Shown here in pieces: positions 1-55,800 of a stretch of DNA of 64,000 bases (positions are counted from its first letter, which is position 1; every line of letters starts with the position of its first letter). Under the pieces are notes generated by a model. The model had not been told where the DNA came from, made no database searches, and saw nothing but the letters and a program-made list of their open reading frames with translations. Position numbers and translations under genes: made by a program. This stretch comes from Candidatus Nanopelagicales bacterium. Lineage in GTDB: Bacteria > Actinomycetota > Actinomycetes > S36-B12 > GCA-2699445. Where the stretch lies: NCBI GenBank assembly GCA_037045355.1, contig JBAOHO010000012.1:239071-303070 (forward strand). The letters run 5' to 3'.

Positions 1-1148
1 GTGGGGCGATGATCGCCATGCGTAGCAGCCACTTCGATTGCGGAACGCGTCCCTTGCGGGCCGCCCACCAGCCGATGAGCGCAAACAGGGCGCCGAGCAT
101 TCCGAAGCCGATCATGAGGCGGAAACCCCAATAGGAGACCGGGATGTTCGGCGTGTAGGACTCGGGTGCCTGGCCGTACATCTCCTGCATCTGCGGCGTG
201 AATTCCTGTTGGTACTGCGCCTCGAGATTGTTGATGCCCTCGACGGTTCCGCTGAAGGATCCGGTGGCCAGGAACGAGCAGCGCACCGGGAATGTCGACG
301 CTGAAGATCGGTTGCGACCCGTCCAAAGTGCCGACGGTGAAGATGCTGAACGGAGCGGGAGTCGCGGTCTCGTACAGCGCCTCAGCGGCGGCCATCTTCA
401 TGGGCTGCTGCTGGACCATGATCTTCGCGTCCTGGTCACCGGACAGTCCGAGTGCGACGGCCGCGATGACGGCCACCAGAGCGCCGAGTTTCAGGGTGCT
501 GCGCGCCATGTCCGCGGACTTGTCCCGCATCAAGAGCCACAACGAGACGCCAGCCATGAGTGCACCGGCAGTAAGGAACGCTGCCGACACCGTGTGCAGC
601 CAGGCGATGATGGCGGTGTTCTGGAACAGGACCTCCGTAATGGACGTCATCTGCGCCCGGTTCTTCTCGGGGTTGAACTCGTAGCCGACCGGATGCTGCA
701 TGAAGGCGTTGGCGGCGAGGATCATGTAAGCGCTCAGCGCGGTCCCGATCGCGGCCAGCCAGATCGTCATCAGGTGGACCTTCTTCGGCAGCCGATCCCA
801 TCCGAAGATCCACAATCCAAGGAATGTCGACTCCAAGAAGAAGGTCAGCAACGCCTCGATCGCCAGTGGGGCACCGAAGATGTCTCCCACGAAACGGGAG
901 TAGTTGCTCCAGTTCATTCCGAACTGGAACTCCTGGACGATTCCCGTTACCACGCCCATCGCGAAGTTGATCAGGAACAACTTGCCGAAGAACTTCGTGG
1001 CCTTCAGCCACTTCTCGTTGCCCGTGCGCACCCACGCGGTCTGCAGCCCGGCGACGAGGAAAGACAAGCCGATGGTGATGGGGACGAAGAGGAAGTGGTA
1101 AACGGTCGTGATTCCGAACTGCCACCTGGCGATGTCGAGTGGATCCAC
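1..1148 (-). pseudogene. cydA: cytochrome bd ubiquinol oxidase subunit I, N-terminal ~380 codons (leaves window at position 1); frame broken near 276-280
   Basis: Own minus-strand translation from GTG 1148-1146 (aaggag upstream): VDPLDIARWQFGITTVYHFLFVPITIGLSFLVAG...QQQPMKMAAAEALYETATPAPFSIFTVG...FSVDIPGAL. It then continues in another frame as SFLATGSFSGTVEGINNLEAQYQQEF...YWGFRLMIGFGMLG. Absent from the ORF track because it runs off the edge. Confidence 0.85.
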
Positions 1149-1322
1149 AGGAACTCCTTGAGTTGCCGATGCCTTCGATCATGCCAATCCGCGCATTTCG
1201 GCGCCCCTGACATCGAGCTGCTCCTGCGGGATCCGCGCGAAAGTCGGGACCAAGGTCCCGGTTTAGTTCTCATCCGACGGCATTTCTGCTGCGGATTCCG
1301 AAGCAGTGGAGCGTGGGTGCGC

Positions 1323-1700
1323 TCAGGTCCCGGATGCCCGCGACAGCAGGTTGGCGAGCAGGCTCTCGGCTGAGTTCGGGTCGATCTGACGGGGATCGAA
1401 ACTGAAGTCGTGTTCGGTGCGCAGGTGATAGAACGCGCGCAACTCGGTCGATTCGATGACCTCGTCGATCCGGGCATGGCGCACGGCTTCCTGCTCGCTG
1501 ACCCCGGCAGCCAGGTCGGCGAGAGCTGCGGCGTCGATGTCCAGGAATCCGACGGACAGGATCTCGCGGTCATCCGTCAGTGAGAGCGCGTTGAAGACGC
1601 GGGCCGGAACCCCGAATCCCTGGTCGGCCTCCCACGCAGCGATGAAGTCGTCGAATGATGCGCCTTCTTTCAAACGTCGCCTGAACACGGCTACCAGCAT
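1323..1700 (-). CDS. small conserved hypothetical protein (125 aa), possibly a dimeric alpha/beta-barrel fold
   Basis: Internal ATG 1700 of ORF 1323..2141, preceded by aggagg. The product MLVAVFRRRLKEGASFDDFIAAWEADQGFG... looks protein-like, whereas the upstream 147 aa of the ORF is Arg/Pro-rich noise. Confidence 0.55.
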   Translation of the reverse strand: MLVAVFRRRLKEGASFDDFIAAWEADQGFGVPARVFNALSLTDDREILSVGFLDIDAAALADLAAGVSEQEAVRHARIDEVIESTELRAFYHLRTEHDFSFDPRQIDPNSAESLLANLLSRASGT

Positions 1701-1983
1701 CGTTACCTCCTGGCGCTCCTCGGGTTCCCGCCGCTCGGGTGCGGGTCCTGTCGCTCCCAGGGTCCCTGAACCGCTGGGACCTGACTGCATCCTGACCGCC
1801 AGCCGCGACTGATTCCTGCCGAGCCGCCCTGTCTGAGGGCGGAGCAGTCCTTCCTGAGGGCCGAGCAGCCTCTGAATGACGGTCGAGGAGTCCCTGCCTT
1901 GGGGCGGAGGAGTCCGCCTCCGGCGTTCTCGCCAACCGCTGCTTTTCGCTCCTGGGCTGCCGCGTGTGGAGCATGATGCAGTC

Positions 1984-3216
1984 ATGAAGATCATGACGCG
2001 GGTGATCCCTTGGCTGCTCCTCGTCGCCGGTGTCGCTGTCATCGTGTTCGCCGGTGTCTCCGGGGTGCGCTCTTTCGTCTCAGCGCTCCAGCCGGCCGCC
2101 GAATGGAACTCGCCGGGCACCCAGACGGTGACTCTCGACAAGGGGACGTGGGTCGTCTATCAGGCGGGTGCCATCTCCCCGCGCACCGGGCGTTCGCAAG
2201 AGTGGACGATCGACTGGCAGGACATCACGGTCACCGGACCGTCCGGTCCGGTCGCCACCAGTTGTGTCTACTGTTCCGGCTCGGAGACGCTCGGGGTGGG
2301 CGCAGTGACGTACCGAGGAGTCGTCCGTTTCGCGGCCGAGACTGCGGGTGACTACTCGATCACGACCGAGACCAGCGGCTCCCGCCTGGCCGTCGCCCAG
2401 TCGGCGTTCCGCACTGTGAGCGACACGTTCTCCGCGCTCATGTGGATGGGGGTGGGCGGCCTCTTGATCGCCGCGGGGATGGTGTGGCTCGTCGTCCTGT
2501 TGGTCCAGTACCTGTCGCGTCCCAAAGGCCCCCGCCCCGCGGACGGCCAAGCGGTACCGACCGGCGGCGCATATCCCGCACCCCCGCCGATGGACCCACG
2601 GTTCGCACCACCCACGCCGGTGGGACAACAGGCCTTAGGCGCAGGTACCCCAACCCGGATACCCGCCGCCCGCCGGGCAGCAGCCGACCATTCCATCCGA
2701 GCAATTCCCCAACCCCACCCGGCAATTCCCCAACCCCACCCGGCAATTCCCCAACCCCACCCGGGAGCACCGGACTACCGTCCGAGGGCGCCGTGCCCCC
2801 ATCCGATCCCACGGCTTCATCGCCCACCCCTGGCCCCGGCAGTGCGCCCGATTCGCCTCCCCCCGGCAATCGAAGTTCCTGACGGCGAATCAGAGCAGTT
2901 CGTCGGCAGCCACGGGGGACGAGTCCCGCAGGAAGTCCGCGCACCTTTGCGCTTCGGCGGTTTCGCCGATAGCGGCAGCCGCGAGACTCAGTTCGGCGAG
3001 GCAGAGAAGGAATCCCCGATTCGGTTCGTGCTCCCACGGGATCGGCCCATGGCCCCGCCAGCCGTTGCGGCGCAAGGCGTCGAGACCGCGGTGGTAGCCG
3101 ACCCGCGCGAAGGCGTACCACTCCAGCGACGCATCCGTTTCGCGAGCGGCCGCCGCCAGTGCCGCCCAAGCGGCACCCGATTCAGGATGAAGTCGCGCTG
3201 CGTCAGTGGCCGGTAG
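1984..3216 (+). CDS. membrane-anchored protein with Pro-rich C-terminal tail; 3' end unresolved (last ~330 nt is probably antisense shadow of 2890..3300)
   Basis: ATG 1984 gives MKIMTRVIPWLLLVAGVAVIVFAG (TM). A second TM, MWMGVGGLLIAAGMVWLVVLLV, is followed by a Pro-rich tail. Rare codons (tta, ata) appear in this frame after ~2625. An alternative frame stops at 2882, just before the convergent gene. Confidence 0.5.
   Translation: MKIMTRVIPWLLLVAGVAVIVFAGVSGVRSFVSALQPAAEWNSPGTQTVTLDKGTWVVYQAGAISPRTGRSQEWTIDWQDITVTGPSGPVATSCVYCSGSETLGVGAVTYRGVVRFAAETAGDYSITTETSGSRLAVAQSAFRTVSDTFSALMWMGVGGLLIAAGMVWLVVLLVQYLSRPKGPRPADGQAVPTGGAYPAPPPMDPRFAPPTPVGQQALGAGTPTRIPAARRAAADHSIRAIPQPHPAIPQPHPAIPQPHPGAPDYRPRAPCPHPIPRLHRPPLAPAVRPIRLPPAIEVPDGESEQFVGSHGGRVPQEVRAPLRFGGFADSGSRETQFGEAEKESPIRFVLPRDRPMAPPAVAAQGVETAVVADPREGVPLQRRIRFASGRRQCRPSGTRFRMKSRCVSGR
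2701..2763 (+). repeat. 3 x 21-bp perfect tandem repeat (gcaattccccaaccccacccg) in the Pro-rich tail region
   Basis: Read directly. It encodes AIPQPHP, QFPNPTR or NSPTPPG depending on frame. Confidence 0.95.
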
Positions 3217-3300
3217 ACCCTGAGCCAGCTCATCGGTCGCCGGGTCAGGGGGGAGCAAGGTCGGTTCTGGGCCACCGAGCAGGTCGGGATGATTCGTCAT
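2890..3300 (-). CDS. conserved actinobacterial protein, DUF3151-like
   Basis: 136-aa ORF MTNHPDLLGGPEPTLLPPDP...WYAFARVGYHRGLDALRRNGWRGHGPIPWEHEPNRGFLLCLAEL. The family assignment is from memory of this motif pattern. Confidence 0.65.
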   Translation of the reverse strand: MTNHPDLLGGPEPTLLPPDPATDELAQGLPATDAARLHPESGAAWAALAAAARETDASLEWYAFARVGYHRGLDALRRNGWRGHGPIPWEHEPNRGFLLCLAELSLAAAAIGETAEAQRCADFLRDSSPVAADELL

Positions 3301-3319
3301 GCCGACATGATGCCGCGGG

Positions 3320-4619
3320 TCAGCCGCCGCCGATGGATTCGAAGAGCTTCAGTGCCCGGGGAGTGTCCCACTTGACGGCCTGTTGCCCGTTTACCCAATA
3401 CGAATCCGACTCGATAGGCACAGCGGTCTGTTCGCCGAGCCCAGCGGAGATGAGCGCCATCGCGAAAGCCATTCGACCGTCCGCCACGACACCGGTGCCA
3501 TCGTCCACGGTCAGTGAAGACGCAGCCGCCCGGTCGACAGAGAACATCTTGAAAGGATTGAGGAAGGTGAGCGGGTTGGCGGTCTTGGCGGCGACCGCCT
3601 TGACGTACTCTTGCTGGCGCTCCGCGCGCCCGATGTCCCCCTTGGGGTCGGCGTACCGCATCCGGACATAGGCCAGAGCCGTCGGGCCGTCCATGACCTG
3701 GCAGCCCTTCTTCACGTCCAGTCCGGAGTTCTCGTCGTCGTAGTTGGCTGCGGGGCACATGGTCACGCCGCCCAGGGAGTCGGCGATGTCAGCCACCCCG
3801 AGCATGCCGATCTCGACATAGTGGTCGATGTGGACTCCGGTGGTGTTCTCGACGGTCTGGATCAGCAGTTGGGGACCGCCGAGGGCGTAGGCGGAGTTGA
3901 TCTTGCCCTCACCGTTGCCGGGTATCGGAACCCACGAGTCCCGCGGGATCGAGATGAGCGTGGGCGTGCCCAGGTTGGGGACGTGCAGCAGCATGATGGT
4001 GTCGGTGCGTTGACCGTCCGTGCTGCCGGTGTGAAGTTGCCGCTGTTGCTGCTTGGTGAGTTCCTCGCGGCCGTCGGACCCCACCAATAGGTAGTTGGAT
4101 CCCGCGGTATCCGCGATCTGGTCTGCGGGCATCGCGTTGATCTTGTTGACGTTCAACGCGAAGAAACCGACCAGGGCCACCACGTATACGAGTAGCGCGA
4201 CCAGAACGTAGAGCAGGATGCGCTTCGCTCGGCTGCGTCCGGATCGAGGCGGCCGCGCCGGACCACCGGGAGGGTCGAGCCGGACGGGTGGTAGGTGGCA
4301 CCCGACCCGGGGGTGTGGGCGGAGGCAGCACGGCGGTTGCCCCGGGATCAGGTCGCGGAGTCGGCGCTGTCACTGCGTGTGGATCGGGAGTTGATCCGTG
4401 CTGCACGGACGCGCGGGAGGACGGCGGGGGTGGTGTGTGGGGCGGGGTTTGCGGCGGCGGTGGGTCGCGGAACAGATCCGAGAAGTCCGAGAGCGCGGTG
4501 TCGCTGACCGTGTCATGGCGGGCCACCTGGCCCGCGCCCGGCGCCTGAGGGGTCGCTTCCGGACGCATGAATTGCTCGTACTCGGGCGGAACCGCGTTGG
4601 GGCGATCCGGCTCATTCAT
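3320..4619 (-). pseudogene. LytR-CpsA-Psr (LCP) family cell-wall glycopolymer ligase; N-terminal tail and TM/LCP domain lie in different frames
   Basis: ORF 3320..4183 has the LCP core (NYLLVGSDGRE...RTDTIMLLHVP...LISIPRDSWVPIPG...KINSAYALGGP). Its first canonical start (GTG 4183) falls inside the TM helix RILLYVLVALLVYVVALVGFF. That frame is closed by TGA 4372-4370. The Pro-rich cytoplasmic N-terminus MNEPDRPNAVPPEYEQF... (ATG 4619) is in another frame. Confidence 0.75.
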
Positions 4620-4883
4620 GGGTCAAGTGTGCCCCGGACCCCCGTCCCAAACACCCGTCCGCTCGACCGTGACCCGCTTGATACCTGGTGCCTGGGGCAG
4701 ACCGAGGACTCGGACAGGGGTGTCGTTGGAGCGTGCGGGCTCCTCAATCGCACCGGGGATGTTCGTTGGCGAGGGGATCGGCGGCCTAGTGGTGGTGTCA
4801 GTGAGATCACTGTCGGATCACGATTGCGCTGCATTCGAGTGACGGCGCTACGGAAGCCAGGGCCCCGCAGCCGATGCTCAAGC

Positions 4884-6515: not shown

Positions 6516-6563
6516 TCACTGGTCGTATACGCTCCCAGAAACCCCGAGGGGCTGGGAGGCCGC

Positions 6564-7139
6564 ATGCTGTTGTCGGATCGGGACATCCGCGCCGAGGTGG
6601 CCGATGGCCGAGTCGCGATCGACCCCTTCAGCGAGGACATGATCCAGCCCTCCAGTGTCGATGTCCGGCTCGACAAGTACTTCCGGGTGTTCGAGAACCA
6701 CCGGTATCCCCACATCGATCCGGCAGAGGAACAGCCCGACCTGACCCGGCTCGTCGAAGCGGAAGCGGAAGAGCCCTTCATCCTGCATCCGGGCGAGTTT
6801 GTGCTCGCCTCGACGCTGGAAGTGGTCACCCTCCCCGACGATGTGGCAGGCCGGCTGGAGGGCAAGTCGAGTCTTGGCAGACTCGGCCTTCTGACCCATT
6901 CGACCGCAGGGTTCATCGACCCCGGTTTCAGTGGACACGTGACGCTCGAACTGTCGAATGTCGCCACCCTGCCGATCAAACTGTGGCCCGGAATGAAGAT
7001 CGGGCAACTGTGCCTGTTCCGCTTGTCGTCTCCCGCTGATCACCCGTATGGCTCACAGAGGTACGGATCGCGGTATCAGGGTCAACGTGGCCCGACACCC
7101 AGCCGTTCCCATCTGAATTTCCATCGCACGCCGGTCTGA
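6564..7139 (+). CDS. dcd: dCTP deaminase
   Basis: 191 aa: [12 protein letters not shown]...[11 protein letters not shown]...[35 protein letters not shown]...[14 protein letters not shown]. This is a typical Dcd sequence. Confidence 0.93.
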
Positions 7140-16034: not shown

Positions 16035-17379
16035 GTGTCTCGTCGTTTCTTCACCTTGTCTGCTGTTCCGGTCGCCGCGTTGGCGTTGATGGCCGGCGTC
16101 ATGCAGGTCCCTGCCCAATCAGCTCCGGCTCTTCCCGCAGCGGATGACTCGGCCCTCGCGCCACCGACCATCGTCGGTTTGGGCGACTCGTACATGTCGG
16201 GTGAGGGTGTCATGTACGCCAACAAGAACTTCTCGTCGTCGAAGCGCAGCGGCGACTGGTCGATGTGGCAGACGGCCGCGGGAGCCATCGGCGGCGATAT
16301 CGGAACACCCGACGACCCCACGGCGGTGGGCAACAGATGGCTGTCGGTCTTCGGAGATGCCACCGGGTACAAGCCGTACCCGCCGAATTCGAACCGCGAG
16401 TCCATTCCGTTGTGCGATCGCAGTTATGCAGCCGCGATGCACATCGGACGCGGCTGGCTGTCGGAGAATCTCGCTTGCTCCGGGGCGATCCTGACCACCG
16501 TTCCCAAGACCAAAGAAGGGCTCTTCAAGCCGGGCATCGACTTCGCGGATCTGGTGAATCCGGCGCCCTATGTACCGGTCGGCCAGGGTCAGGCCCTCAT
16601 GCTCCAGGAATACGCCACAGACAACCGCAACGTTGACGTCGTGGCCCTGTCGATCGGCGGCAACGACTTCGGATTCGGGGCGTTGGCCAAGGTCTGTGTC
16701 ACGGATTTCTTGAAGCCGTGGCCATTCCGGCAGAAGTGCTCGAGCGATCCAGATGCGGCCAAGATCGTGAAGGAGGGCATCCCCAAGGCGAAGGCAGCCG
16801 TCAAGGCCTCCGTCGAGAACGTCACCAAGGCCATGGACCGCGCCGGATACGACCAGACCGCGTGGAAGCTCGTTTACCAAAAGCCACCACTTCCCATCGG
16901 CACTGCCGCCCAGACCTACCCCTACTCCGAATCCGGCTACAGCCGGCAGGACATCGGGGGATGCCCGTTCTACGACGCCGATCTGGACTGGATCGTCAAG
17001 GACGTGTATCCCGATCTTGTGGACGCGATGAGGGACGGCTTGAAACAAGCGAAGTCATCGCTCGGCGAGACCCAAGTAGTGATCCTGGACACGACCGACA
17101 CCTTCAAGCGCCACAAACTGTGCGGCAAGGACACCATCGGTGCCTTGAACTACTCCACCGGCCAGGCCGGGATGGAGCCGAAGTGGCAGGACGACAACGG
17201 CATCAAGACGGAGTGGGTGACCCCCATCAAGCTGTTCGGCGGTGCGATCGGCGGCAACCTCTACCAGCAGCAGATGCCGCTGCACCCCAACTTCTGGGGT
17301 CAGCGCGCACTGTCCGACTGCATGGACCTGGCGAGACGTGTCGCACCTCGATCAGGCCTCGCCGGAGGATCACAGCTGA
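16035..17379 (+). CDS. secreted SGNH/GDSL hydrolase; C-terminus reconstructed across a probable 1-nt frameshift near 17334 (the raw ORF runs on to 17642)
   Basis: GTG 16035 follows ggagg. Signal VSRRFFTLSAVPVAALALMAGVMQVPAQSAP, the GLGDSYMSGEG block, and a C-terminal LHPNFWGQ block. After 17334 the raw frame uses rare codons, while the +1 frame is GC3-rich and stops at TGA 17377-17379. Confidence 0.75.
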
Positions 17380-18738
17380 CGACTCAGCCACCAGGACCGC
17401 GCCATCGCGGGCCTCGGCCGGGCTCCCCAGTACCGGGCCAGGCGTTCTTTCGCCAACGGCCAGCGCTGGCCAACACGGGTCGCTTCGGACGCACCGACGA
17501 GACGAATAGTGTCGTGGACACGCCGGGTTGCTGCATCGAGTGCCTGGTCGTCCTCACCCCAGAAGTAGACGGACCACGGGTTGGCAACCAGGTCCCGGGT
17601 GGGCACGACGGTGTTGCCCACCTTGGGTTTCTTGATCCATAGGAGGAATCCGGGCATTGTCTCCACGGCGTCGATGCCGTCGATGCGTGCGATCTTGTCG
17701 CGCCTCGTGGCGGTCCCGTTGATCGCCACGATGGGGTGGCTGTCATAGCGCGCGACGTCGAGCGCCGGGTCCTCCGTGCGATCGAGGTTCACGTAGTCAT
17801 CCACGGCGAGATCGATCAGGTCCACGCCGAATTGCCAGGAGTCGGTCGCCACGATCTTCTCGCCGCCGAGGCGTGTGGCGACCTCGATCAAGACATGGTC
17901 CTCGATCGTCGATCTTGGCTTCGAGGTGGAACGGACTGCAGCGGAGATCCAATGCAGTGAGGACTCGCGCGGCGTAGTCCGTCAGGGTGGCCGACGCCGG
18001 ATGATTCCGGGGGATGGTGCGCGATCCAACCTCGACGTTCTCCTTACCGTTCACGTCGCGTCTGTCATAGACGCCGATCCCGGTCACCATGGGACGCCCA
18101 GTCGAGTCGCACTGGCCGTTCACCCAGTACTCGGAACCGCCCACGAACTCCTCGACCAAGGTGGGTGCCGCATGGTGTGCGAAGTAGGCGTGCACGGCTT
18201 GTTCATCGAGAGGGTCCGCGGCGAAGAAGGCGACACCCCGGTTGCCGGAACCGGCATCGGGCTTCAGCACGAACCGACGCACCCCGGTCGCTCGCACCCA
18301 GTCTGAGACCTCTCTCGCGTTCGACACGGACGCCACCTGGTTCAGCCGGATCGTAGGATCAGCCGCTCTGATGAACGCTTTGACAGCCCGCTTGCTGTCG
18401 ACCACTGTCAGCACCGGCTGCTCTGCCCATCCGACACCCAGTTCGCGGGCGAGCCGAACGAGCGGCGCCACGGCTCCCTCGTCGTGCGGGAGCGCCGCGA
18501 CAACGTCGTGGCGTCGGCGCAGCAGCGGGGCGAGTGCCTCGATCCCCGCAGTGGGCACCATGTAGTGCGCCGCGATCGCGCGGGAGTTCAAGACCGCCTG
18601 CCTGGGCTGCCTGATCAGCCGGGTGCGCCAATCGGAGTGAAGGGCGACAGTTCGGATGCCGTGCTCTTCGTACAAGCGCTCGATGAAGCGGTCCGCGTAG
18701 AACTGGTACGGATTCAGAAGCACGGCTTCGCGCGACAC
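17370..18738 (-). pseudogene. ATP-grasp domain protein, frame broken near 17889-17892
   Basis: ORF 17797..18738 ends ...SPFHLEAKIDDRGPCL. The sequence then continues in another frame (ORF 17370..17891) as (L)IEVATRLGGEKIVATDSW... A single extra base restores PCLIEVATRLGG, the typical ATP-grasp C-terminal motif. Confidence 0.78.
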
Positions 18739-24808: not shown

Positions 24809-26262
24809 CCGGAGCCCTTCATGAAGGCCGTCAGGGTTCGCAGCATGATCTTGAGGTCCAGCCACAGAGTCCAGTTCTGGATGTAATAGTTGTCGTAGCG
24901 CGCACGCTCCTCGATCGAGGTGTCCCCGCGCAGGCCGTGGATCTGCGCCCAACCGGTCAAACCGCACGGCACCCGATGCCGCGCGTCATAGCGGGCGTAA
25001 CGATCCGAGAACTCGTCGACGAAGTGAGGTCGTTCCGGCCTGGGCCCGACGAGGCTCATGTCCCCCCGGAAGATGTTCCACAGTTGGGGAAGCTCATCGA
25101 GCGACGACCGGCGCAGGAACTTGCCGAACCAGGACAGTCGATCGTCATGCTTGACGTTCCAGTTGGTGGCGCTCTCCGTCTCGCTGGCCGGGCGGAGACT
25201 GCGGAACTTCAACAGTTCGAACTCCACGTCATCGATTCCCACCCGGTGCTGCCGGAAGAGAACTCCGGGTCCGTCCACGATGCGATTGATGAGTGCCAGA
25301 AGAAGGAGCAACGGCGACAGCAGCAAGAGCGCGAGTACCGGACACCGTGATATCGATCGCTCTCTTGAGCCACCAGGTGGGGGAGCGGAATGGCGCTCGA
25401 TGGAGATGCTGCAAGGGGATCCCGTCTATTTCATCCGAGGCGCCGCGCTGCGCCGTCAGCTCGAACAGTCGGGGCACGATGTACATGCTCACCTCGGCCC
25501 GATCACACGTCTGGATGATCGGAACCAACTGGTCTTCGGGAGCGACCGTGAAGGCGATGATGACCTGATCGACACGCTCGTCGGACACGATGGTCGCCAT
25601 ATTCTCGGATGGGCCGAGATTGGAGGCGGGCAGCGCCGAATCGGGCAGCGCTGGGTCGCTGTCCACGTAACCGACCAGGGTGCACCCGTACGACCCATCG
25701 GTCACCATGTAGACCCCGAGATCCCGGGCCACCTGACCCGCTCCCAGGATCACCGTTCGTTCTCTTAGATGCCCCCGACGGCGCAGTTCGCGAACGAGCC
25801 AGTAGGTAGCAGTACGGACGACCACCACCAGCACCACGAGCGACGGCGAGGAAGATCTGATCCCGGCCGCCCAGGAGAGATTGTGTGATGAGCGCCAGGA
25901 TCGCCGCACTGGCGGCTCCCGCAACGATCGTGGCGGCCACAAGGCGCGGCAGGTCGTCGAGTACGTGGAGTGACATCTTCATCTGGTACTGACGCGCCAG
26001 CACGCAGTGCGACGATCAAGACCACACCCGTGATGATCTCGTACCACGGCGGATCGGAGACCGACGTCAGATACGCCAGGACGATGGCCAGCAGATCTCC
26101 CACCAGCAGGATCTGCCTGCTGCGCGTGCGGCTCCGGCGGTGGGGGACGGCCGGACCCGAGGGCGCATCGCTCCCCTTCGGCCCGGAGATCACATCATCG
26201 TCTCGCACATCGTCGCGCACCCTCCGATTGTGGCTCGTGCGGCCTGACGCTCGCTCCGTCAC
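24805..26262 (-). pseudogene. polyprenyl-phosphate glycosyl-1-phosphate transferase (bacterial sugar transferase, WbaP/EpsL type), split over four frames
   Basis: Consecutive pieces: MTERASG...EIITGVVLIVAL | (V)LARQYQMKMSLHVLDDLPRLVAATIV...DQIFLAV | LVVLVVVVRTATYWLVRELRRRG...TVILGAG...WWLKRAIDITVSG | VLALLLLSPLLLLLALINRIVDGPGVLFRQHRVG...DELPQLWNIFRGDMSLVGPRP. Junctions lie near 26004, 25841 and 25339. Confidence 0.85.
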
Positions 26263-42379: not shown

Positions 42380-43225
42380 GGTCTGTCGACGACGGCTTCT
42401 CCCCCGAGGACGAAGAGTCCCCCGAGGACGAAGAATCCCCCCAGGACGAAGAATCCCCCGGGGCCCCCACGGGCGCGGAGTCCCACCAAGGCGCGGAGTC
42501 CCCCGCAGGCGCGAGCCCGGAATCACCATTCACCAGTGAGGCGCGGATCCGGGAACTGCTTGGCGGCCCAACCCCGCCCGCAGATGCCGACCGCCGTTCG
42601 CGAACGCATCCTGGCTGCATTGGCGGCCGAACCCCAGCCCGACTTCACGGCAACCCCTGGCAACAACAAGGCCGCCGGTGGGGCCACTGGCGGGTCCAAT
42701 GGCAAGGCATGGTGGACATTTGCGGCGGTGGCGGCAGCCTTTGTGCTCCTCGTGGGCGTCGTGTTCCTGCCGCGGTCCTCCGAACCCCCGGCCACCACCA
42801 TCGCGGGCGAGCAGGCGCCCTCCGTGGGCGATGATCACAAGGTCGCCACTGACGTGTCGTGCGGAGGGCAGCCCCTGACCTACGAGTCGGGAACCAGGTA
42901 TGTCCCGGCATCGTTCACTGACCAGGCCCAGGATCTGGCGGCCTACTGTTCGGCGGAGGCCCGCTCGCCAGTATCCACTCAGAACCAGGTGCGACCCGCC
43001 GAACCCACTCGTGACCCAGTTCCGGCGATGAGCCCCGGTCTGGCCCTGAGATCCATGCGGTGCGTGATCGAGGCAGCACCCACAGCAGATGTCATGGTCG
43101 TCGATCGTGGGTACTACGGCACGGACCCGGCGACGATCGCAGTCGTCGGACCACCCAGTCGGGCGCTCGTCATCGACTGCCAGGACCAGCCCGAACGGGT
43201 CGTTGCCGAGGTGGGTCTGGACTGA
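42376..43225 (+). CDS. anti-sigma factor (anti-SigM-like), probably frameshifted near 42567-42569 (alternative: independent start at GTG 42536 or ATG 42584)
   Basis: GTG 42376 overlaps the sigM stop (GTGA). The acidic N-terminus ...[15 protein letters not shown] is in one frame. [21 protein letters not shown], a TM ([20 protein letters not shown]) and an extracytoplasmic domain are in ORF 42536..43225. Confidence 0.6.
42399..42452 (+). repeat. 3 x 18-bp in-frame repeat ([18 protein letters not shown])
   Basis: Read directly. Confidence 0.85.
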
Positions 43226-43493: not shown

Positions 43494-44430
43494 GTGACCG
43501 ATATCCGCAACGTCATCATCGTCGGCTCTGGACCGGCCGGATACACGGCGGCGGTCTACGCCGCCCGGGCGCAGTTGCAGCCACTGGTCTTCGAGGGGGC
43601 CGTGACCGCCGGTGGAGCGTTGATGAACACCACCGAGGTCGAGAACTTCCCCGGTTTTGCCGAGGGCATCATGGGTCCGGAACTCATGTCCCAAATGAAG
43701 CTGCAGGCCGAGCGATTCGGCGCCGATCTCATCACCGATGACGTCACCGACATCCGGGTGGACGGTGACATCAAGACCGTCGTCGACGGTGCCGGTCAGG
43801 AACATCGCGCCCGGGCACTGATCCTGGCCATGGGATCGGGATATCGCGAGATCGGCCTACCCGACGAGAAGCGCTTGAGCGGGCACGGGGTGTCCTGGTG
43901 CGCCACGTGCGACGGATTCTTCTTCCGCAACCAGCACATAGCCGTGGTGGGCGGCGGCGACTCGGCCATGGAGGAAGCCACCTTCCTCACCCGGTTCGCC
44001 GACAAGGTCACAGTGATCCATCGGCGCGACTGAACTGCGCGCCAGCAAGATCATGGCCGAGCGGGCGCTGGCTGATCCCAAGATCGAGTTCGCGTGGAAC
44101 AGCACGGTGACGGCGCTGCACGGCGACGACAAGTTGACCGGCGTGACGCTGGAGGACACCGTCACCGGACAGCGGCGAGAACTGACGGTGAGTGGTCTGT
44201 TCATCGCGATTGGTCACGATCCTCGCTCGGAGTTGGTCAAGGGCCAGATCGAACTCGACGGGGAGGGCTACGTGATCGTGGACCACCCCTCGACCCGCAC
44301 CAACGTCGCCGGCGTCTTCGCGTGCGGGGATGTGGTCGATCACACGTATCGCCAGGCCATCACCGCCGCGGGTACCGGGTGCTCCGCCGCACTCGACGCC
44401 GAGCGATTCCTGGCCGACCTGGGAATGTGA
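43494..44430 (+). pseudogene. trxB: thioredoxin-disulfide reductase interrupted by one extra T at 44031 (likely sequence error)
   Basis: GTG 43494 follows gggaagga. [20 protein letters not shown], redox [20 protein letters not shown], ...VTVIHRRD then TGA. Deleting t44031 gives HRRDELRASKIMAERAL... and joins ORF 44053..44430 (GLFIAIGH, FACGDVVD). Confidence 0.9.
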
Positions 44431-48669: not shown

Positions 48670-49638
48670 TCAGTCCCGGGGCTCGGTGAGGATCTGGTCG
48701 ACGATGCGCGCCAGGTCATCGACGCCGCCGAACTCCACGACGATGCGGCCCTTGCCCGACCCGCCTTCGATTCGGACCCGCGTCTCGAGCCGGTCCGCCA
48801 AGCGGTCCGCCGCCTCGCGGTACTCCACGGGGGTTCGGGTCTTGCGGGAGCGACGCTTCTTGGCGTCGGGGGCAGCGTCATCGACCAGCACGAGCTCCTC
48901 GACGGCGCGCACGCTCAGCCCCTCAGCGACGACGCGCATGGCCAGTTGTTCCATCCGATCGGCATCACCGGCTGCCAGGATCGCCCGTGCGTGTCCGGCA
49001 CTCAGCACCCCGGCCGCGACCCGACGCTGAACTGTCGGAGGCAACTTGAGCAAGCGCAAAGTGTTGGCCACCTGCGGACGCGAGCGCCCCACCCGCTGCG
49101 CCAACTCCTCCTGGGTACAGTCGAAGTCGGACATGAGCTGGGAGTAGGCAGCCGCCTCCTCGAGAGGATTCAACTGGACCCGGTGGAGGTTCTCCAGCAG
49201 CGCATCGCGCAGCATGACGTCGTCATCGGTCTGACGGATCAGGGCCGGGATCCGGGTGAGGCCGGCCAATCGCCCGGCGCGCAAGCGACGCTCGCCCGCG
49301 ACGAGTTCGAAGCCTTGCTCGGCTGGGCGCACCACGATCGGTTGGAGCAGCCCGACCGTGGTGATGCTCTGCACGAGTTCGCTGATCGCGTCGTCGTCGA
49401 AGACCTGCCGTGGTTGCCGCGGGTTGGGGACGACCTGATCGAGGGGGATCTCTCGGTACTGCAGTCCCGCCGCCGACTCGGTCATCGGCTCCTCACGCAC
49501 TGCCGGGGGCGTTGGACGTAGGTCGATGACCTTCTCGGTCGCTGGTGTCGATCCCTCGGCGACCACGACTGGCACCGAGACTCCTCCGCTCGGGATCAGC
49601 GCCCCGAGGCCCTTTCCGAGTCCGCGTCGTTGTGTCAT
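48670..49638 (-). CDS. parB: chromosome partitioning protein ParB
   Basis: In-frame ATG 49638: MTQRRGLGKGLGALIP..., NPRQPRQVFD, GLLQPIVVRP, ELVAGERRLRA. Confidence 0.93.
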   Translation of the reverse strand: MTQRRGLGKGLGALIPSGGVSVPVVVAEGSTPATEKVIDLRPTPPAVREEPMTESAAGLQYREIPLDQVVPNPRQPRQVFDDDAISELVQSITTVGLLQPIVVRPAEQGFELVAGERRLRAGRLAGLTRIPALIRQTDDDVMLRDALLENLHRVQLNPLEEAAAYSQLMSDFDCTQEELAQRVGRSRPQVANTLRLLKLPPTVQRRVAAGVLSAGHARAILAAGDADRMEQLAMRVVAEGLSVRAVEELVLVDDAAPDAKKRRSRKTRTPVEYREAADRLADRLETRVRIEGGSGKGRIVVEFGGVDDLARIVDQILTEPRD

Positions 49639-49751
49639 GTTCTTCCCTTCGTCCCGGGGCGTTCTGTTGTGTCGTCGCGAGTCGTGTGGCCGTTCGTGCT
49701 CTGTCCGGATGCCCGCATCATGAGCGAGGAGCGTCCGTTTAATCCGGTATG

Positions 49752-50852
49752 TCATGGAATGTTCGTAATGTCTGTTACATGGGTGTCAGGGACGTCCGCC
49801 TCAGCGACCGGTTCTGCGGTATCGGACGCTATGGACTCGTCGGCGGACGCGGACCGGGCCGCACTCTCGACCGTCACCGGCGATTGTCCGGTCGCGAACT
49901 CTCGGGCTGCGGCCAGGTACGCGCGCGCACCCGGGGACTGAGGGTCGTACTGGAGCACCGTCTGACCGTAGGACGGAGCCTCGCTGACCCGCACCGTGCG
50001 CGGGATGGTCGTGTCGAGGACTCGATCAGGGAAGTGTGTGCGGACCTCGTCGGCGACCTGAGGCGCCAGCTTTGTACGGCCGTCGTACATCGTCAATAGG
50101 ATCCCGGTAATTGTCAGGCCGGGGTTCAAGTGCTCCTGGATCAGACCGATGGTGCCCAACAGGTGCGACAACCCCTCGAGTGCGTAGTACTCACTCTGCA
50201 GGGGAATCAGGACCTCTTGCGCGGCGACCAAGGCGTTGAGGGTCAGCAGCCCCAGGCTGGGTGGACAGTCGATGATGACGTAGTCAAGGCGATCGTGTGC
50301 GGTCTCGTGCTCGGAGAGGTAGGTCTGCACCGCTTTGTGCAGCCGGTTCTCGCGCGCGACCTGGCTCACCAACTCGATCTCGGCGCCGGCCAGGTCGACT
50401 GACGCGGGCACTCCCCAGAGTTCCGGCAGACCCGGAACTACCTGAACAGCGTCCAGTAGTGACTTGCCCCCCACGAGCACCTCATACGTACCGGTGACAC
50501 CGGACTCATGGGGCAGATCCAAGGCGGTGGAGGCGTTGCCCTGCGGATCCATGTCGATCACCAGAACGCGTTGTCCCAGCAATGTCAGGGCCGCTGCCAG
50601 ATTGACGGCAGTCGTTGTCTTGCCGACACCGCCCTTCTGATTGGCGACCGCGACGAGGCGAGTACCTGCCGGCCGAGGCAGAGGTTCGGATTCAGTCAGA
50701 CCGAGGGCCTTGATCATGCGTTGCCGGGCGATCACCTCCGGGTCGGGCTGCGGTAGCGGTGTTTCACGTGAAACAGTCGGAGTTTCGTCAGACACGGGCA
50801 CTGGAGCCACGCATGTTCCCAGCGGGGGAACCACTTCCCACGTTCCAGCCAC
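49752..50852 (-). CDS. parA: chromosome partitioning ATPase ParA (Soj) with N-terminal extension
   Basis: VAVANQKGGVGKTTTAVNLAA (deviant Walker A). The N-terminal extension contains VSRET, which is encoded by the parS palindrome, as in mycobacterial ParA. Confidence 0.92.
   Translation of the reverse strand: MAGTWEVVPPLGTCVAPVPVSDETPTVSRETPLPQPDPEVIARQRMIKALGLTESEPLPRPAGTRLVAVANQKGGVGKTTTAVNLAAALTLLGQRVLVIDMDPQGNASTALDLPHESGVTGTYEVLVGGKSLLDAVQVVPGLPELWGVPASVDLAGAEIELVSQVARENRLHKAVQTYLSEHETAHDRLDYVIIDCPPSLGLLTLNALVAAQEVLIPLQSEYYALEGLSHLLGTIGLIQEHLNPGLTITGILLTMYDGRTKLAPQVADEVRTHFPDRVLDTTIPRTVRVSEAPSYGQTVLQYDPQSPGARAYLAAAREFATGQSPVTVESAARSASADESIASDTAEPVAEADVPDTHVTDITNIP
50760..50775. promoter_or_regulatory. 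parS: parS site (perfect TGTTTCACGTGAAACA)
   Basis: Exact 16-bp palindrome matching the ParB-binding consensus, inside the parA 5' coding region. Confidence 0.9.
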
Positions 50853-50893
50853 AGCACCCTCCCGGTCGAGATTCCCGGCGTCGAGAGTTCAGG

Positions 50894-51499
50894 TTAGGTG
50901 CTGCGGACGTGATACCGAACGACTGTCGTCGGCGGGTTGACAATCTCGCCACCCACCTGGAGGACCTCAGGATCGGTCAGGCCCAACCGGTCGGCCACCT
51001 CCGCGGCCGCTGCCACCTCTTGGGCAGCCATCCGACCCTTGAAAGCCACGACCGTCCCCCGGGTCAGTGGCGCCAACCAGGGCAGAAGTCGGGGCAGTGG
51101 CGCCACGGCACGGGCTGTTGCTACGTCGAACTCACCGGTCGGCAGATCTTCGGCGCGGGAACGCACCACCGAGACGCGGGCCCCCAACCCCAGGTGCGCA
51201 ACGAGTTCGGACAAGAAGGTGGCCCGGCGTTGGAGGGACTCCACGCACGAGACCCTCAGATCGGGACGGGCGACCGCCCAGACCACCCCGGGCAACCCGG
51301 CTCCGGATCCCACATCCACCACACGCGCGGATGCCGGGACCAAGGTGTTGTCCCACGCCACGACCGCGCAGTTGAGGATGTGCCGATCCCACAGGCGGTC
51401 TGCCTCACGGGGACCGATCAGTCCCCGTTCTATGCCGGGACCGGCGAGGAACTGCTCGAGCTCGCGCAGCCCTTCTGTTTCACGTGAAACAGCGCTCAC
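50894..51499 (-). CDS. rsmG: 16S rRNA (guanine527-N7)-methyltransferase RsmG (GidB)
   Basis: 201 aa: RLWDRHILNCAVV..., VVDVGSGAGLPGVVWAVARPDL. The GTG start overlaps the jag stop (GTGA). Confidence 0.9.
   Translation of the reverse strand: MSAVSRETEGLRELEQFLAGPGIERGLIGPREADRLWDRHILNCAVVAWDNTLVPASARVVDVGSGAGLPGVVWAVARPDLRVSCVESLQRRATFLSELVAHLGLGARVSVVRSRAEDLPTGEFDVATARAVAPLPRLLPWLAPLTRGTVVAFKGRMAAQEVAAAAEVADRLGLTDPEVLQVGGEIVNPPTTVVRYHVRST
51476..51491. promoter_or_regulatory. parS: parS site (perfect TGTTTCACGTGAAACA)
   Basis: Second exact copy, inside rsmG codons 3-8 (again encoding VSRET). Confidence 0.9.
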
Positions 51500-52287
51500 G
51501 CCGGCGTGATCACCACGTAGCGATTCGGGTCGGTGCCTTCGCTCTCGCTGGCCAGGCCCGCCGCAGCGACAGCGTCGTGCACCACCTTCCGCTCGAACGC
51601 GCTCATAGCGGGCATCCGCACCGGCTGCGCACTGTCACGAGCTTCCGTGATCGCATCCTGGGCCTGTCTCGTCAGCTCGGCGCGTCGGGTGGCGCGATGT
51701 CCGGCGATGTCGAGCATCAGCCGCGACCGGTGACCGGTTTCTCGGGCGACTGCGAGTCGGGTCAGGTCCTGCAGCGCCGTCAGGACCTTCCCGCGATCGC
51801 CGACCAGATGGGCCAAGTCGCCCTCGTTCACCTCGATCACCGCAACAGCCGGCCGGTCGTTCTCGACGCTGATGTCGATATCGCCGTCCAGGTCGGCGAT
51901 ATCCAGCAGGCCCTCGAGGTAATCGGCGGCCACCTCGCCCTCATCCACCAACTCGGTACTGTCGTCCGACTCGGCGCCCTGGTCCGACACGGCCGCCTGG
52001 TCCGGCTGTGCGGTCCCCGCTGCAGCCTCAGGCTCGCCCTCCGAATCCGCGCCGCCGGACTGCGCAACCGCGTCGTCCCCGATCGCCTCACTGCCCGACT
52101 CAGCGTGCCCGGGACCGGCGGACTCCGAAGGTTCGTGATCCACAACGGGCACGGTTCCGCCGCTGGGAGTGTCCGGAGTACTCGCGCTGTCCGGACCGTT
52201 TGGACCGTCTGGACTGTCTGAATTGTCAGAGTTATCCGGAATATCCCCTTGGTGAACTGGGGAAGTTTCGTGGGCTTCCTGGGTCAT
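51496..52287 (-). CDS. jag: Jag/KhpB-type R3H domain RNA-binding protein with acidic low-complexity N-terminus
   Basis: C-terminal KH/R3H region: LVGDRGKVLTALQDLTRLAV... and MSAFERKVVHDAVAAAGLASESEGTDPNRYVVI. Position between yidC and rsmG. Confidence 0.85.
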   Translation of the reverse strand: MTQEAHETSPVHQGDIPDNSDNSDSPDGPNGPDSASTPDTPSGGTVPVVDHEPSESAGPGHAESGSEAIGDDAVAQSGGADSEGEPEAAAGTAQPDQAAVSDQGAESDDSTELVDEGEVAADYLEGLLDIADLDGDIDISVENDRPAVAVIEVNEGDLAHLVGDRGKVLTALQDLTRLAVARETGHRSRLMLDIAGHRATRRAELTRQAQDAITEARDSAQPVRMPAMSAFERKVVHDAVAAAGLASESEGTDPNRYVVITPA

Positions 52288-52295
52288 GGTGTCTC

Positions 52296-53267
52296 CTAGT
52301 TGCTGCTGGAGGTCTGGTCGGGCGAGGCGCCGGGGCCCCGTTTGCGTTGACTGCGCGACTGCCGCTTGGGCTGCGCTCGTTTCACAGGTGCCGCGGGCGG
52401 GGGGGCCAAGGCCTCCTCCACGGTGGCGATCTCGCCGCGCTTCACGGCTTTGCGTGCCTCTTTCTCAGCCTTGCGGGCTTCCCATGCCTCGTAGGCGGGG
52501 GTGTTCGGTTGGGGGTTGTTGCGGATCACGTAGAACTGCTGCCCCATCGACCACAGGTTCGTGGTGAACCAGTAGATGAGGACACCCACGGGGAAGTTGA
52601 TGCCCCCGATGGCGAACATGAACGGGAAGACGTAGAGCAGGATCTTCTGCTGGCGCACGATCGGGTTGTCGTCGGACATGTTCTTCACGATCAACTGGCG
52701 TTGGGTGAGGAACGTCGTCGCCGTCATGGCGATGATCAGGATGACGGTCAGAATGCGGGTGTTAATGGGGTTCGGGGTCTCGGCCGCGCCGAGGAACGTC
52801 CCGTACAACGGGACCCCGAAGATGGTCGCCTCACGCGCTTGCTGAAACAGGTCCGCGTACTGCTCCCACTTGAACACCCCCTCGGGAGTGTTCGTGGCGA
52901 TACCCTGCAGCACACTGAACAGCGCGAAGAAGATCGGCATCTGCAGCAGGATCGGCAGGCAGGACGACAAGGGGTTGGTACCGGTTTCCCGGTACAGCTT
53001 CATCATCTCCTGCGACTGGCGCTCTCGGTCGCCGGCGTACTTCTTCTGGATTTCCTTGATCTGCGGCTGGATCAGCTGCATGTTGCGCTGAGCCTTGATC
53101 TGCTTGACGAACAGCGGGATCAGCAGAATCCGGATGACGACGACGAGACCGACGATCGACAGCGCCCAGGCCCATCCGCTCGCCTCTCCGAAGATGGCGC
53201 CGAACAGGCTGTGGAACTGGACGAGGATCCACGAGACGGCAGTGCGCAGCCAGTCCAGTATGAACAC
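52296..53267 (-). CDS. yidC: membrane protein insertase YidC
   Basis: 323 aa: ILLIPLFVKQIKAQRNMQLIQPQIKEIQKKYAGDRERQSQEMMKLYRETGTNPLSSCLPILLQMPIFFALF. Confidence 0.93.
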   Translation of the reverse strand: MFILDWLRTAVSWILVQFHSLFGAIFGEASGWAWALSIVGLVVVIRILLIPLFVKQIKAQRNMQLIQPQIKEIQKKYAGDRERQSQEMMKLYRETGTNPLSSCLPILLQMPIFFALFSVLQGIATNTPEGVFKWEQYADLFQQAREATIFGVPLYGTFLGAAETPNPINTRILTVILIIAMTATTFLTQRQLIVKNMSDDNPIVRQQKILLYVFPFMFAIGGINFPVGVLIYWFTTNLWSMGQQFYVIRNNPQPNTPAYEAWEARKAEKEARKAVKRGEIATVEEALAPPPAAPVKRAQPKRQSRSQRKRGPGASPDQTSSSN

Positions 53268-53371
53268 GGGCGAACTCCAGGCGAGCAGGGTGTGCCGTCC
53301 AGTGTGACTGCCGAATGAAGGAGACGGTGACCCGGGGTCACCCCTCGCCGCTCAGCGACCGGACGTCAGGG

Positions 53372-54514
53372 TCACGACGATGTTCCCTGACCCACCGGGG
53401 CCGGGTCAACTCCCGCCACAGCAGCCTCGCCGTGAACCTGCGAGTCTTTCGTCCGCGACGTCCACCAGGCGACGATCCACCCGGTCACCGCCAGCACGGC
53501 AGCCGCCACCAGCATCGCCTGGAGGGGCACCACCAGCACCGACAAGACCACCGCGATCACGCCGATCAAGAGCGCGCTGAAAACGGGGTGCCGCCAGAAT
53601 CCGGGGGGACCGGCAGGAGTATCCGCGTACGCCTGCAAGGCGCTGTACACGCTGCGGTACTGCACCACAGCGGACGCCACAACAACCAGCGAGAGCACCA
53701 CACACAACACAGCACCTGGCAGCAGCGACCCGAACCCGACGTAGCCTGCGACGATCGCCAGCGAGAACGACGGCAGCGACATCGACCCGCCATTGAACGA
53801 CAGCAATGCCACGAGGGCCACCAGCATGAGCACACCCGTCACGATGGTTCCCGCCACGATGGACCCACCCTCGCTGCGGATCTCCCGCAGTGCCGGGTTC
53901 GAGGCGGCCAGCACGAAGGTAACCAAACAGGACAGCCACGCTCCAGTGGACTGGGCGGCCGGCACGAGTGGATCAGCCAGAGTTGCGGGTGCACCCGCTA
54001 TTCCCCCGATTGCGACCAGCACGAGGAACAAGACCAGCGCAATGACCGTTCCGGTGGAGACGATGCCCCGCTGCGCCGCCCCTCCGATCGCCGCGGCGAC
54101 CGCGGCGACTGCGATGACGACCGCCACCGCCTCAGGACTGAGCAGTTCGAGAGGAGCCACGGCGCTGGCGCCCCAGCGCACCACCCCTGATCCCAGGACC
54201 ACCGCGACCGCGGCGGCACAAAGCATCTGCCACCCCGCCGCGACCCAGTGATCCCGCGGCAACGTCAGGCTCGCTGGTCCGATCAGGGACGCGAGCATGC
54301 CGAGAACCACCGATACGGTCATGGCGAGGGCCGTGGTCAGGGTCCACCCACCGGCCGCGAAGAACGTTCCGGATACCGCGACCACCGGCAAACCGGCCAT
54401 GAACGTGCGCATCCAAGTGCGCGGTACGGTCTGCTTGCCCGTGAGTCCGACGAGGGCCACCACTCCCATGGCCACTGCGATCAACGCGCTGATCATGCCG
54501 TCACCACCCCACAC
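53372..54514 (-). CDS. polytopic membrane protein of unknown function (about 11-12 TM), inserted between yidC and yidD
   Basis: 380-aa Ala/Val/Leu/Gly-rich ORF. Its start overlaps the end of the upstream lipase-like gene. I did not recognise any family. Confidence 0.65.
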   Translation of the reverse strand: MWGGDGMISALIAVAMGVVALVGLTGKQTVPRTWMRTFMAGLPVVAVSGTFFAAGGWTLTTALAMTVSVVLGMLASLIGPASLTLPRDHWVAAGWQMLCAAAVAVVLGSGVVRWGASAVAPLELLSPEAVAVVIAVAAVAAAIGGAAQRGIVSTGTVIALVLFLVLVAIGGIAGAPATLADPLVPAAQSTGAWLSCLVTFVLAASNPALREIRSEGGSIVAGTIVTGVLMLVALVALLSFNGGSMSLPSFSLAIVAGYVGFGSLLPGAVLCVVLSLVVVASAVVQYRSVYSALQAYADTPAGPPGFWRHPVFSALLIGVIAVVLSVLVVPLQAMLVAAAVLAVTGWIVAWWTSRTKDSQVHGEAAVAGVDPAPVGQGTSS

Positions 54515-55800
54515 AATCGCCGGTCACCGGTTCTCCCGCGAATCGCTCCGCGAACCAATCGAGATACTGACTGCGAGCGGTGTACTGCACCGACCGGTGC
54601 ACGTCGTTGGGGAACTCCTGCAGTTGTATCGAGTTTCCGAGAGCGCAACCCTGGATGGCCATCGCGCGGCTCAACTGCGGTACGACGCTGGTGTCGGCGG
54701 CTCCCTGCTGGACCAAGATCGGGATCGACGTCGTCCCCAGCAACGGTTGCTCCATCGCTGGGATCTTGGCCACGCTCAGTGGCACCGAACGATTGAAGTA
54801 GGTGTGGAAGGTCTGGTCGAGAGCCTTCAACTGGGCGCCTTGGCACAGGTCGTACGCCGCAGGGATGTCCGTCATTCCCTGCGGGGTGTACCAGTACTCC
54901 GGTTTCGACAACTCGGGGAAGGTCGCGTTCCACGACGCCGTCAGGTCCGTGAGGTACCCACTGCGCGGGGTGGGGCCGTCGTCACCTGTGGAGCCGAGCA
55001 GAGCTCTGAATCGCCGCCGGGAACGGGGGCACTCCACCGGGAGCCTGCGCAATCGACCCGCGGATCGCCAACTCGGGAGCGTAGTCCGGTGCCATGTCGG
55101 CGGTCGTCAGCGCGACGAATCCCCCTTCGCTGTGCCCGAGGACCCCGAGGCTGCCGCTGTCGAGCATCTGGGGTCGGAATTCGAGCGCAGCGCGCAGACT
55201 GTCGAGCACGTCGTAGGACTGCTTACGCAGCAGGTACGTGTAGGTGCCGGGTGCGCCCATTCCCTCGTAGTCCGTGGCCACAACGGCGTAACCGGCGCCG
55301 ACCATGGGACTCATCAACGTCCGCCAGTACTCGTTGCCAGCGGTCTCATTGGTGAACGGGGCCTGCGACATGCCGCAGGACCGGCCCACGCCTGTGGTGC
55401 CGTGCGCGAAGGCGACCAGGGGATACCGGCTCCCGGTCGGCGGTGGTGTGGTGGGCTCCAGATAGAGCCCCGAGATGGTGATCGGATCGCCCGCGTTGTT
55501 GCGCGACAAGTACAGCAACCGCCATGCGGACACTCCCTCAGGAGCGTCTTTGATCGGCTCGGAGCGCAGCACTGTCCCTGGCGGCTCGTCCGGCAAAGTG
55601 TCCGGCGGGTCGTAGAAGGACGTCGGCTCCACACCTTTGGCGGCGCTGAACGGGGTTTGGGTGGCTGCTGTGGTGTTCCCGCCCGCCAGGGTTTGGTCCG
55701 GTGTCCCGGCGGTGAGGTTGAGCAGGACGGCTGCCAGTACCGTCACCACCGCGACGACGAGAACAGTGAGCACCTTGTGATGCGGCTGCATGCCCGGCAT
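54501..55800 (-). pseudogene. LIP-family/alpha-beta hydrolase (secretory lipase-like), frame broken near 55005
   Basis: ORF 54982..55800 has a signal anchor, PLVAFAHGTTG, GYAVVATDYEGMG, and the GVLGHSEGGFVAL nucleophile elbow, ending ...PFPAAIQ. It continues in ORF 54501..55052 as ALLGSTGDDGPTPRSGYLTDL... One extra base explains the break. Confidence 0.75.

Follow-up and report, generated by a model that had tools for sequence, protein, structure and literature searches.

Many unrelated genes appear to be interrupted in a stretch of 64,000 nucleotides from a Candidatus Nanopelagicales bacterium (hereafter the window, meaning the whole of the DNA that was analysed), which raises the question of whether these genes are decaying, are read through by recoding, or are broken only in the record. 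Our comparison with related assemblies indicates that the extra bases are very probably consensus errors of a metagenome-derived assembly that merged very similar strains, and that the organism's own genes are probably intact. The interruptions are almost certainly neither gene decay nor recoding, and not a real biological feature. We favour this interpretation because the insertions are private to this record, fall on polymorphic sites, are uniformly +1 and break essential genes. The preliminary description of the window had also leaned towards consensus insertion errors over decay, and the same observations support it there.

Single-base insertions in the window

Nucleotide alignment of the window with same-genus genomes and with 56 loci of independent same-species assemblies reveals 12 single-base insertions in the 60,285 bases compared. 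Eleven of them break genes, with one each in cydA, trxB and the genes for LCP, ATP-grasp, an anti-sigma factor and a LIP hydrolase, two in the gene for a Pro-rich membrane protein and three in that for a sugar transferase, while the twelfth only clips the end of parA:

278..279, minus strand: cydA (cytochrome bd subunit I), one extra base; window CGA-GC-AGC, conspecifics CGA-C-AGC or CGA-G-AGC (2 contigs each)
2631..2637, plus strand: Pro-rich membrane protein gene (about 1984-2882), one extra base; window CAGGCCTTAGGC (12 nt)
2699..2700, plus strand: Pro-rich membrane protein gene, second extra base; window CC-GA-GC, alleles CC-A-GC and CC-G-GC (3 contigs each)
4290..4293, minus strand: LytR_cpsA_psr (LCP) gene, 3320-4619 (Pfam), one extra base; window GG-TA-GG, conspecifics GG-A-GG (6 contigs) or GG-T-GG (1 contig)
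17889..17893, minus strand: ATP-grasp (L-amino-acid-ligase-like) gene, 17370-18738, one extra base (Pfam, same-genus alignment and one conspecific contig)
25334..25337 (25336), minus strand: polyprenyl-phosphate sugar transferase gene (24805 to about 26210), one extra base; window GAG-T-ACC, GAGACC in 18 conspecific contigs
25841..25844 (25843/4), minus strand: sugar transferase gene, second extra base; window GCG-AC-GGC, conspecifics GCG-A-GGC (16 contigs) or GCG-C-GGC (3 contigs)
26003, minus strand: sugar transferase gene, third extra base; window GCA-C-GCA, GCAGCA in 19 contigs
42559..42560, plus strand: anti-sigma factor gene, 42376-43225, one extra T (T to TT); 10 conspecific contigs lack it
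44029..44031, plus strand: trxB, 43500-44430, one extra base; window GCG-ACT-GAA, conspecifics GCG-AC-GAA (Asp, 4 contigs) or GCG-CT-GAA (Ala, 9 contigs)
49754..49755, minus strand: last codons of parA, one extra base; window GTC-ATGG-AAT, alleles GTC-TGG, GTC-ACG and GTC-CGT
55003, minus strand: LIP-family secreted hydrolase gene, 54501-55800, one extra base; window CAGA-G-CTC, CAGACTC in 10 contigs

The recurrent single-base frameshifts in unrelated genes that had been described from the window are thus recovered by a codon-usage decoder, by pieces of single genes matching Pfam models, and as one extra base in the conspecific alignments. The decoder finds same-strand frame switches at almost every coordinate listed in the preliminary description. 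The pieces of cydA fall on profile positions 1-300 and then 275-346 of one model, and those of the LIP gene on 13-106 and then 215-284 of another; the sugar transferase splits into CoA_binding_3 followed by Bac_transf, and the ATP-grasp gene into ATP-grasp_4 followed by a weak LAL_C2 match. Downstream pieces of the broken genes retain full codon bias and conservation. In conspecifics the corresponding genes are unbroken, with 291-298 aa for the Pro-rich membrane protein, 432 aa for LCP, 466 aa for the sugar transferase (at least 12 contigs), 276-294 aa for the anti-sigma factor and 432 aa for the LIP hydrolase, and the ATP-grasp gene is open in the one conspecific contig found to lack its extra base. 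The extra base of cydA is also seen in the same-genus alignment. In trxB the insertion creates an in-frame TGA, and in parA it alters a variable C-terminal tail.

Nearly all of the junctions listed previously hold (cydA, LCP, ATP-grasp, the three in the sugar transferase, anti-sigma factor, trxB and LIP), and the Pro-rich membrane protein, which had been put forward as a possible further case, carries two insertions, at 2631-2637 and 2699/2700. The parA insertion at 49754/5 was missing from that list.

The SGNH hydrolase junction near 17334, also listed as a one-base frameshift, has to be removed, as comparison with a conspecific contig places a structural breakpoint there:

17334..17335, no strand assigned: SGNH hydrolase gene, structural breakpoint

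The 3' 1,087 bp of this gene, containing three Ig-like repeats, is in place in the conspecific contig and is found at G000 C12:121244-122329, where a Wzz-like gene precedes it. The breakpoint is apparently one end of a 134-kb inversion, real or misassembled. The query of the SGNH search was the composite, joined SGNH-repeat protein. The Wzz-like protein had no relatives in metagenome contigs, and the second inversion breakpoint had no DNA match in genome contigs, in searches that possibly left out records of or near the source genome.

Comparison with orthologous loci, which had been proposed as a check, gives a uniform result. All 12 insertions are missing from every conspecific contig covering the site (1-19 contigs per site, 99-99.9% identity); these contigs come from many samples and assemblers, and a second MAG among them spans 11 of the 12 sites. 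The congeners lack the extra base at all 8 sites where they were compared. The direction of the events is equally uniform, with no frame-breaking single-base deletion in the 60,285 compared bases of the window; the sole deletion peculiar to the window falls between genes, in a C run at 20259. As had been remarked for many of the junctions, the extra base is mostly not in a homopolymer: by the conspecific alignment at least 10 of the 12 lie outside one, and only the anti-sigma factor site (42560, TT) clearly lengthens a run, the site at 2631-2637 being ambiguous.

Two population alleles at the insertion sites

Seven of the 12 insertion sites hold, side by side in the window, two alleles of the population as represented by conspecific contigs. 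Polymorphic positions make up 1.09% of positions among these contigs, and the probability of finding at least 7 of 12 insertions on them by chance is about 1e-9 to 3e-8. The pattern is most easily read in trxB, in which the two allele codons are GAC and GCT and the window carries GACT. Searching with the composite read-through protein retrieves an unbroken TrxB of 311 aa that matches the window read-through exactly and occurs as two alleles, HRRDELR and HRRAELR. A second trxB copy was looked for in the genome and none was found, so that the gene is single-copy. In the Pro-rich membrane protein gene, CAGGCCTTAGGC combines two alleles of 11 nt, CAGGCTTTGGC and CAGCCTCAGGC.

Presumably, wherever the strains carry different bases at one position or at two neighbouring ones, consensus building wrote both alleles in succession, neither being chosen. 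Such tandem writing would add exactly one base and shift the frame. The step responsible may have been a software operation, for example polishing by partial-order alignment in which reads of several strains were applied to long-read contigs, and the use of long reads is itself presumed. On a fine scale the window alternates between haplotypes found in other assemblies, and polymorphism near the insertion sites is roughly double the average for the window. The clustering of the insertions in envelope and accessory genes, previously thought also to fit genuine pseudogenisation, is explained by this roughly twofold local polymorphism.

A comparable effect has been described in long-read assembly, in which collapsing allelic variants into one consensus introduces spurious INDELs and makes genes look frameshifted (Cosentino et al. 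2021, PMC8445201). There, too, the consensus gains a base where neighbouring allelic variants are collapsed, and the ORFs that this truncates are full length in each haplotype. That case is a diploid eukaryote, whereas here the mixture probably consists of bacterial strains within a metagenome; moreover, the window is uniformly +1 and other assemblies directly display both parental alleles.

The alternative that comes nearest is that random insertions from noisy long reads survived correction where coverage was thin, independently of strain mixing. The remaining 5 of the 12 sites, which show a single allele among the sampled conspecific contigs, would be consistent with it, although the contigs sampled for several of them had been selected because the affected protein, or one next to it, matched exactly, which makes a second allele less likely to be seen. 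The bunching of errors in single genes (the sugar transferase gene and glmS have three each) also points in this direction. However, random errors would not be expected to hit strain-variable positions precisely and carry both alleles at 7 sites, to be always +1 with zero frame-breaking deletions, or to insert bases outside homopolymers, and we regard this explanation as unlikely. Homopolymer indels are discussed for Nanopore/454-type consensus sequences, and microdiversity lowers MAG quality (Sereika et al. 2022, PMC9262707). Frameshifted genes in MAGs are common to that situation and ours; the two differ in the position of at least 10 of the 12 sites outside homopolymers and in the lack of frame-breaking deletions here.

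Breaks across the genome and the case for real mutations

The genome was also screened by tblastn with ORFs of relatives, followed by a codon-usage filter against high-GC shadow frames. Across the genome, some 240 kb of orthologous coding DNA contained about 25 breaks, 23 of them clean +1 and two resembling paired +1, and the same screen of three relatives, over about 230 kb, returned no such breaks. Long conserved genes had been described as intact, which holds inside the window but not genome-wide, because rpoC, rplB, gyrA, glmS (three breaks in one gene) and rplI are broken. The atpA gene, an initial candidate, was a false positive, since its query ORF included the end of the upstream atpH. 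A one-sided pattern like that of the window is seen in another genome, G007, of the same family.

Real mutations in a strain whose lineage is undergoing pseudogenisation could account for the affected envelope and accessory genes, a class that is readily lost in bacteria. Genuine decay, as in Mycobacterium leprae or host-restricted genomes, likewise leaves many unrelated genes interrupted by frameshifts, but it spares essential genes, mixes deletions, insertions and stops, and is common to close relatives. Here, in contrast, rpoC, rplB, gyrA, glmS and the only trxB are also broken, the +1 events are not mixed with deletions or larger indels, and the insertions are shared with no other assembly of the species. 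There is no sign of selection, as essential single-copy genes (rpoC, rplB, gyrA, rplI, glmS and trxB) are broken like any other, and both pieces of each of these stay highly conserved, with codon bias fully kept in the downstream pieces. Decay is therefore a very improbable account of the insertions.

The constant sign of the events and the otherwise perfect conservation of the interrupted genes would also suit real extra bases that are bypassed by +1 ribosomal frameshifting, four-base decoding or transcript editing, but this is scarcely credible: the junctions have no codon or motif in common (by eye, an in-frame CGG is not a signal shared by the cydA, trxB and LIP junctions), all 44 of 44 tRNAs found have ordinary three-base anticodons, every insertion is missing from strains more than 99% identical, and an immediate stop codon arises at several sites. 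Equally far-fetched would be a combination in which templated inter-strain recombination deposited the donor allele beside the resident one, so that the bases are real in one strain, and full-length RpoC, RplB, GyrA and TrxB are made by signal-independent +1 recoding or removal of single bases from transcripts.

Implications for use of the genome

With the insertions taken as consensus errors from merged strains, their biological weight is small and their weight for users of the genome is larger. The genome is a species representative, and extrapolation predicts 300-650 such errors genome-wide. These would inflate pseudogene counts, lower completeness estimates, split proteins in databases and suggest a false loss of trxB, rpoC or gyrA. 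The pattern also offers a simple and checkable diagnostic for other metagenome-derived genomes, in which an insertion exactly at a strain-variable site, composed of both alleles in tandem, would point to this class of error.

Single-base insertions in the window

The window occupies C12:239071-303070 of a 3.31-Mb actinobacterial genome (G000; 30 contigs, 66% G+C, estimated completeness 95%), and extends across the origin region of the chromosome (trxB-trxA, parAB, gidB, yidC, rnpA, dnaA and dnaN). The closest named relatives of its TrxB are Nocardioidaceae, at ~80% identity.

The window was decoded into coding frames by a codon-usage model trained on the long ORFs of G000. Same-strand frame changes without a gene boundary appear at 275/276, 17907/8, 25335/6, 25840/1, 26003/4, 44018/9 and 55002/3, coinciding with or adjoining the coordinates of the preliminary description. 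The flanking pieces match consecutive parts of Pfam profiles: 1-300 and then 275-346 of one family for cydA, 13-106 and then 215-284 of one family for the LIP hydrolase, CoA_binding_3 (55-175) and then Bac_transf (10-178) for the sugar transferase, and ATP-grasp_4 followed by a weak match to LAL_C2 for the ATP-grasp protein. Alignment with four same-genus genomes demonstrates that the window is one base longer at each resolvable junction.

A search with the TrxB read-through recovered intact proteins of 311 aa from other assemblies, at 99.7-100% identity. These matches led to 56 conspecific loci in two other genome records and in metagenome assemblies of short reads; wastewater was the source of many. 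Their identity to the window is 99-99.9%, and together they span 60,285 of the 64,000 positions. The affected genes are intact throughout these loci. Against them the window has the following private insertions.

One-base insertions private to the window, with the intact product in conspecific assemblies and, where at least two alleles were sampled, the population alleles and the window sequence
278/9: cydA; intact, 476 aa; population C or G, window GC
2631-37: Pro-rich membrane protein gene (2634); population two 11-nt alleles, window a 12-nt blend
2699/2700: Pro-rich membrane protein gene (2700); population A or G, window GA
4290-93: LCP; intact, 432 aa; population A or T, window TA
17893: ATP-grasp; frame open in the sole conspecific contig covering it
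25336: sugar transferase; intact, 466 aa
25843/4: sugar transferase (25844); population A or C, window AC
26003: sugar transferase
42560: anti-sigma factor; intact, 276-294 aa
44029-31: trxB; intact, 311 aa; population GAC (Asp) or GCT (Ala), window GACT
49754/5: parA end; population TGG, ACG or CGT, window ATGG
55003: LIP hydrolase; intact, 432 aa

No private frame-breaking deletions were found in the 60,285 bases compared, and the remaining indels are net in-frame changes in short-repeat copy number, low-complexity Pro-rich differences, or intergenic. Frame decoding, Pfam matches, and same-genus and conspecific alignments thus confirm the recurrent single-base frameshifts across unrelated genes that the preliminary description had proposed. 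Its remark that the extra base often lies outside homopolymers also holds, as at least 10 of the 12 inserted bases lack an identical neighbour, and the Pro-rich membrane protein gene, named there as a possible further case, carries two insertions.

Alleles in tandem and strain variation

At 7 of the 12 sites, two or more alleles occur among other assemblies and stand adjacent to one another in the window. Both trxB alleles are also found at the protein level (P0001 and P0002). Because 1.09% of positions are polymorphic among the conspecific contigs, chance coincidence at seven or more of the 12 sites has P ~2e-9 to 3e-8. A single allele was sampled at the other five sites, for several of which the choice of contigs had required an exact match to the broken gene or a neighbour, biasing against a second allele. 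Sequence lying within 150 nt of a site is about twice as polymorphic as the window on average.

The window alternates often between haplotypes represented by contig pairs. In 1-17000 and 35200-54400 the haplotype switches every few hundred bases, one comparison giving 46 changes across 187 diagnostic sites. Such a pattern is compatible with a blended consensus; recombination between strains would give a similar picture.

The copy number of short tandem repeats differs from one conspecific assembly to another at 43277-43305, 2697-2750, 15857, 31089, 40044 and 42400-42460; among these repeats are units of 17-22 nt, one of 18 nt upstream of trxB, and a coding one close to the anti-sigma gene start. 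Strains differ in the C-terminal end of ParA (49740-49790), which reads ...DIPDIPD* or ...NIRDIPDQTDAPRS*, and ParB is called with different starts, giving 271 or 322 aa. Between yidD and yidC, a membrane protein of 374 aa is encoded together with the LIP-family hydrolase at 53372-55800; this insertion into the usual rnpA-yidD-yidC block is common to 10 of 10 conspecific contigs examined, with the hydrolase intact at 432 aa.

A breakpoint in the SGNH hydrolase gene

The junction at ~17334, previously listed as a one-base frameshift of an SGNH hydrolase, is not one. At 17334/5 the conspecific contig L071 continues with 1,087 bp that complete the SGNH domain and add three Ig-like repeats. In G000 this segment lies inverted at C12:121244-122329 (99.8% identical), where its reading frame is continuous with that of a Wzz-like membrane protein before it and with further repeats after it; the 732-aa fusion (P0122) was found solely on the contig of G000 itself. 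In the congener G004, SGNH domain, segment and repeats form a single 961-aa ORF, and in the congener G003 the Wzz-like gene extends only a little beyond its second membrane span, facing the ATP-grasp gene. From these congener arrangements, G000 appears to differ by a ~134 kb inversion (C12 ~122330-256404) with both breakpoints intragenic, in window 17334-17335 and C12:120715-122886, which cuts the hydrolase domain off from its tail of Ig-like repeats.

A third arrangement, in L071 and P0121 (a complete 910-aa protein of another assembly), joins SGNH domain and segment to 15 nt of the Wzz-like gene end and the ATP-grasp side. Two further conspecific contigs end at or within ~10 nt of 17334/5. 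The G000 arrangement may be a genuine strain variant or recurrent rearrangement, or a misassembly.

Frame breaks across the genome and their origin

ORFs with good codon usage from 744 kb of relatives were compared with the whole of G000 by tblastn. Orthologous coding DNA covered ~240 kb and yielded 26 candidate frame breaks, 23 of them in the +1 direction; two (glmS and an aldehyde dehydrogenase) resemble two +1 steps near each other, and one, atpA, was a false positive. Three-frame translation showed each of rpoC, rplB, gyrA, rplI and glmS (three times) to be broken. No second trxB copy was found in G000, where the best match other than trxB itself has 30% identity, and its 44 tRNAs, identified by ARAGORN, all have ordinary anticodons. 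A reciprocal screen of ~230 kb of the relatives G004, G016 and G020 found no frame breaks; G007, another species-representative genome of the family, shows four breaks of +1 type (L017-L020) over the ~28 kb of coding sequence compared, and may carry the same kind of consensus error. Scaling from these rates, we infer ~300-650 such errors in the whole of G000.

To our knowledge, no cell can do without RpoC, RplB and GyrA, nor would genuine decay proceed exclusively by +1 events or place two population alleles in tandem. We therefore attribute the breaks to consensus errors in the record, which would arise where co-assembled strains differ. The preference of the preliminary description for consensus insertion errors over pseudogenisation is thereby supported, and refined to sites of strain difference. 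The responsible program and the use of long reads are inferred from how contiguous the assembly is and what type of error it contains. The insertions belong to the same error class as the INDELs of collapsed alleles in long-read assembly, where close variants displace read alignments and ORFs are truncated (PMC8445201), and microdiversity is known to lower the quality of MAGs (PMC9262707). The frame breaks of the window are almost certainly no biological feature of the organism.
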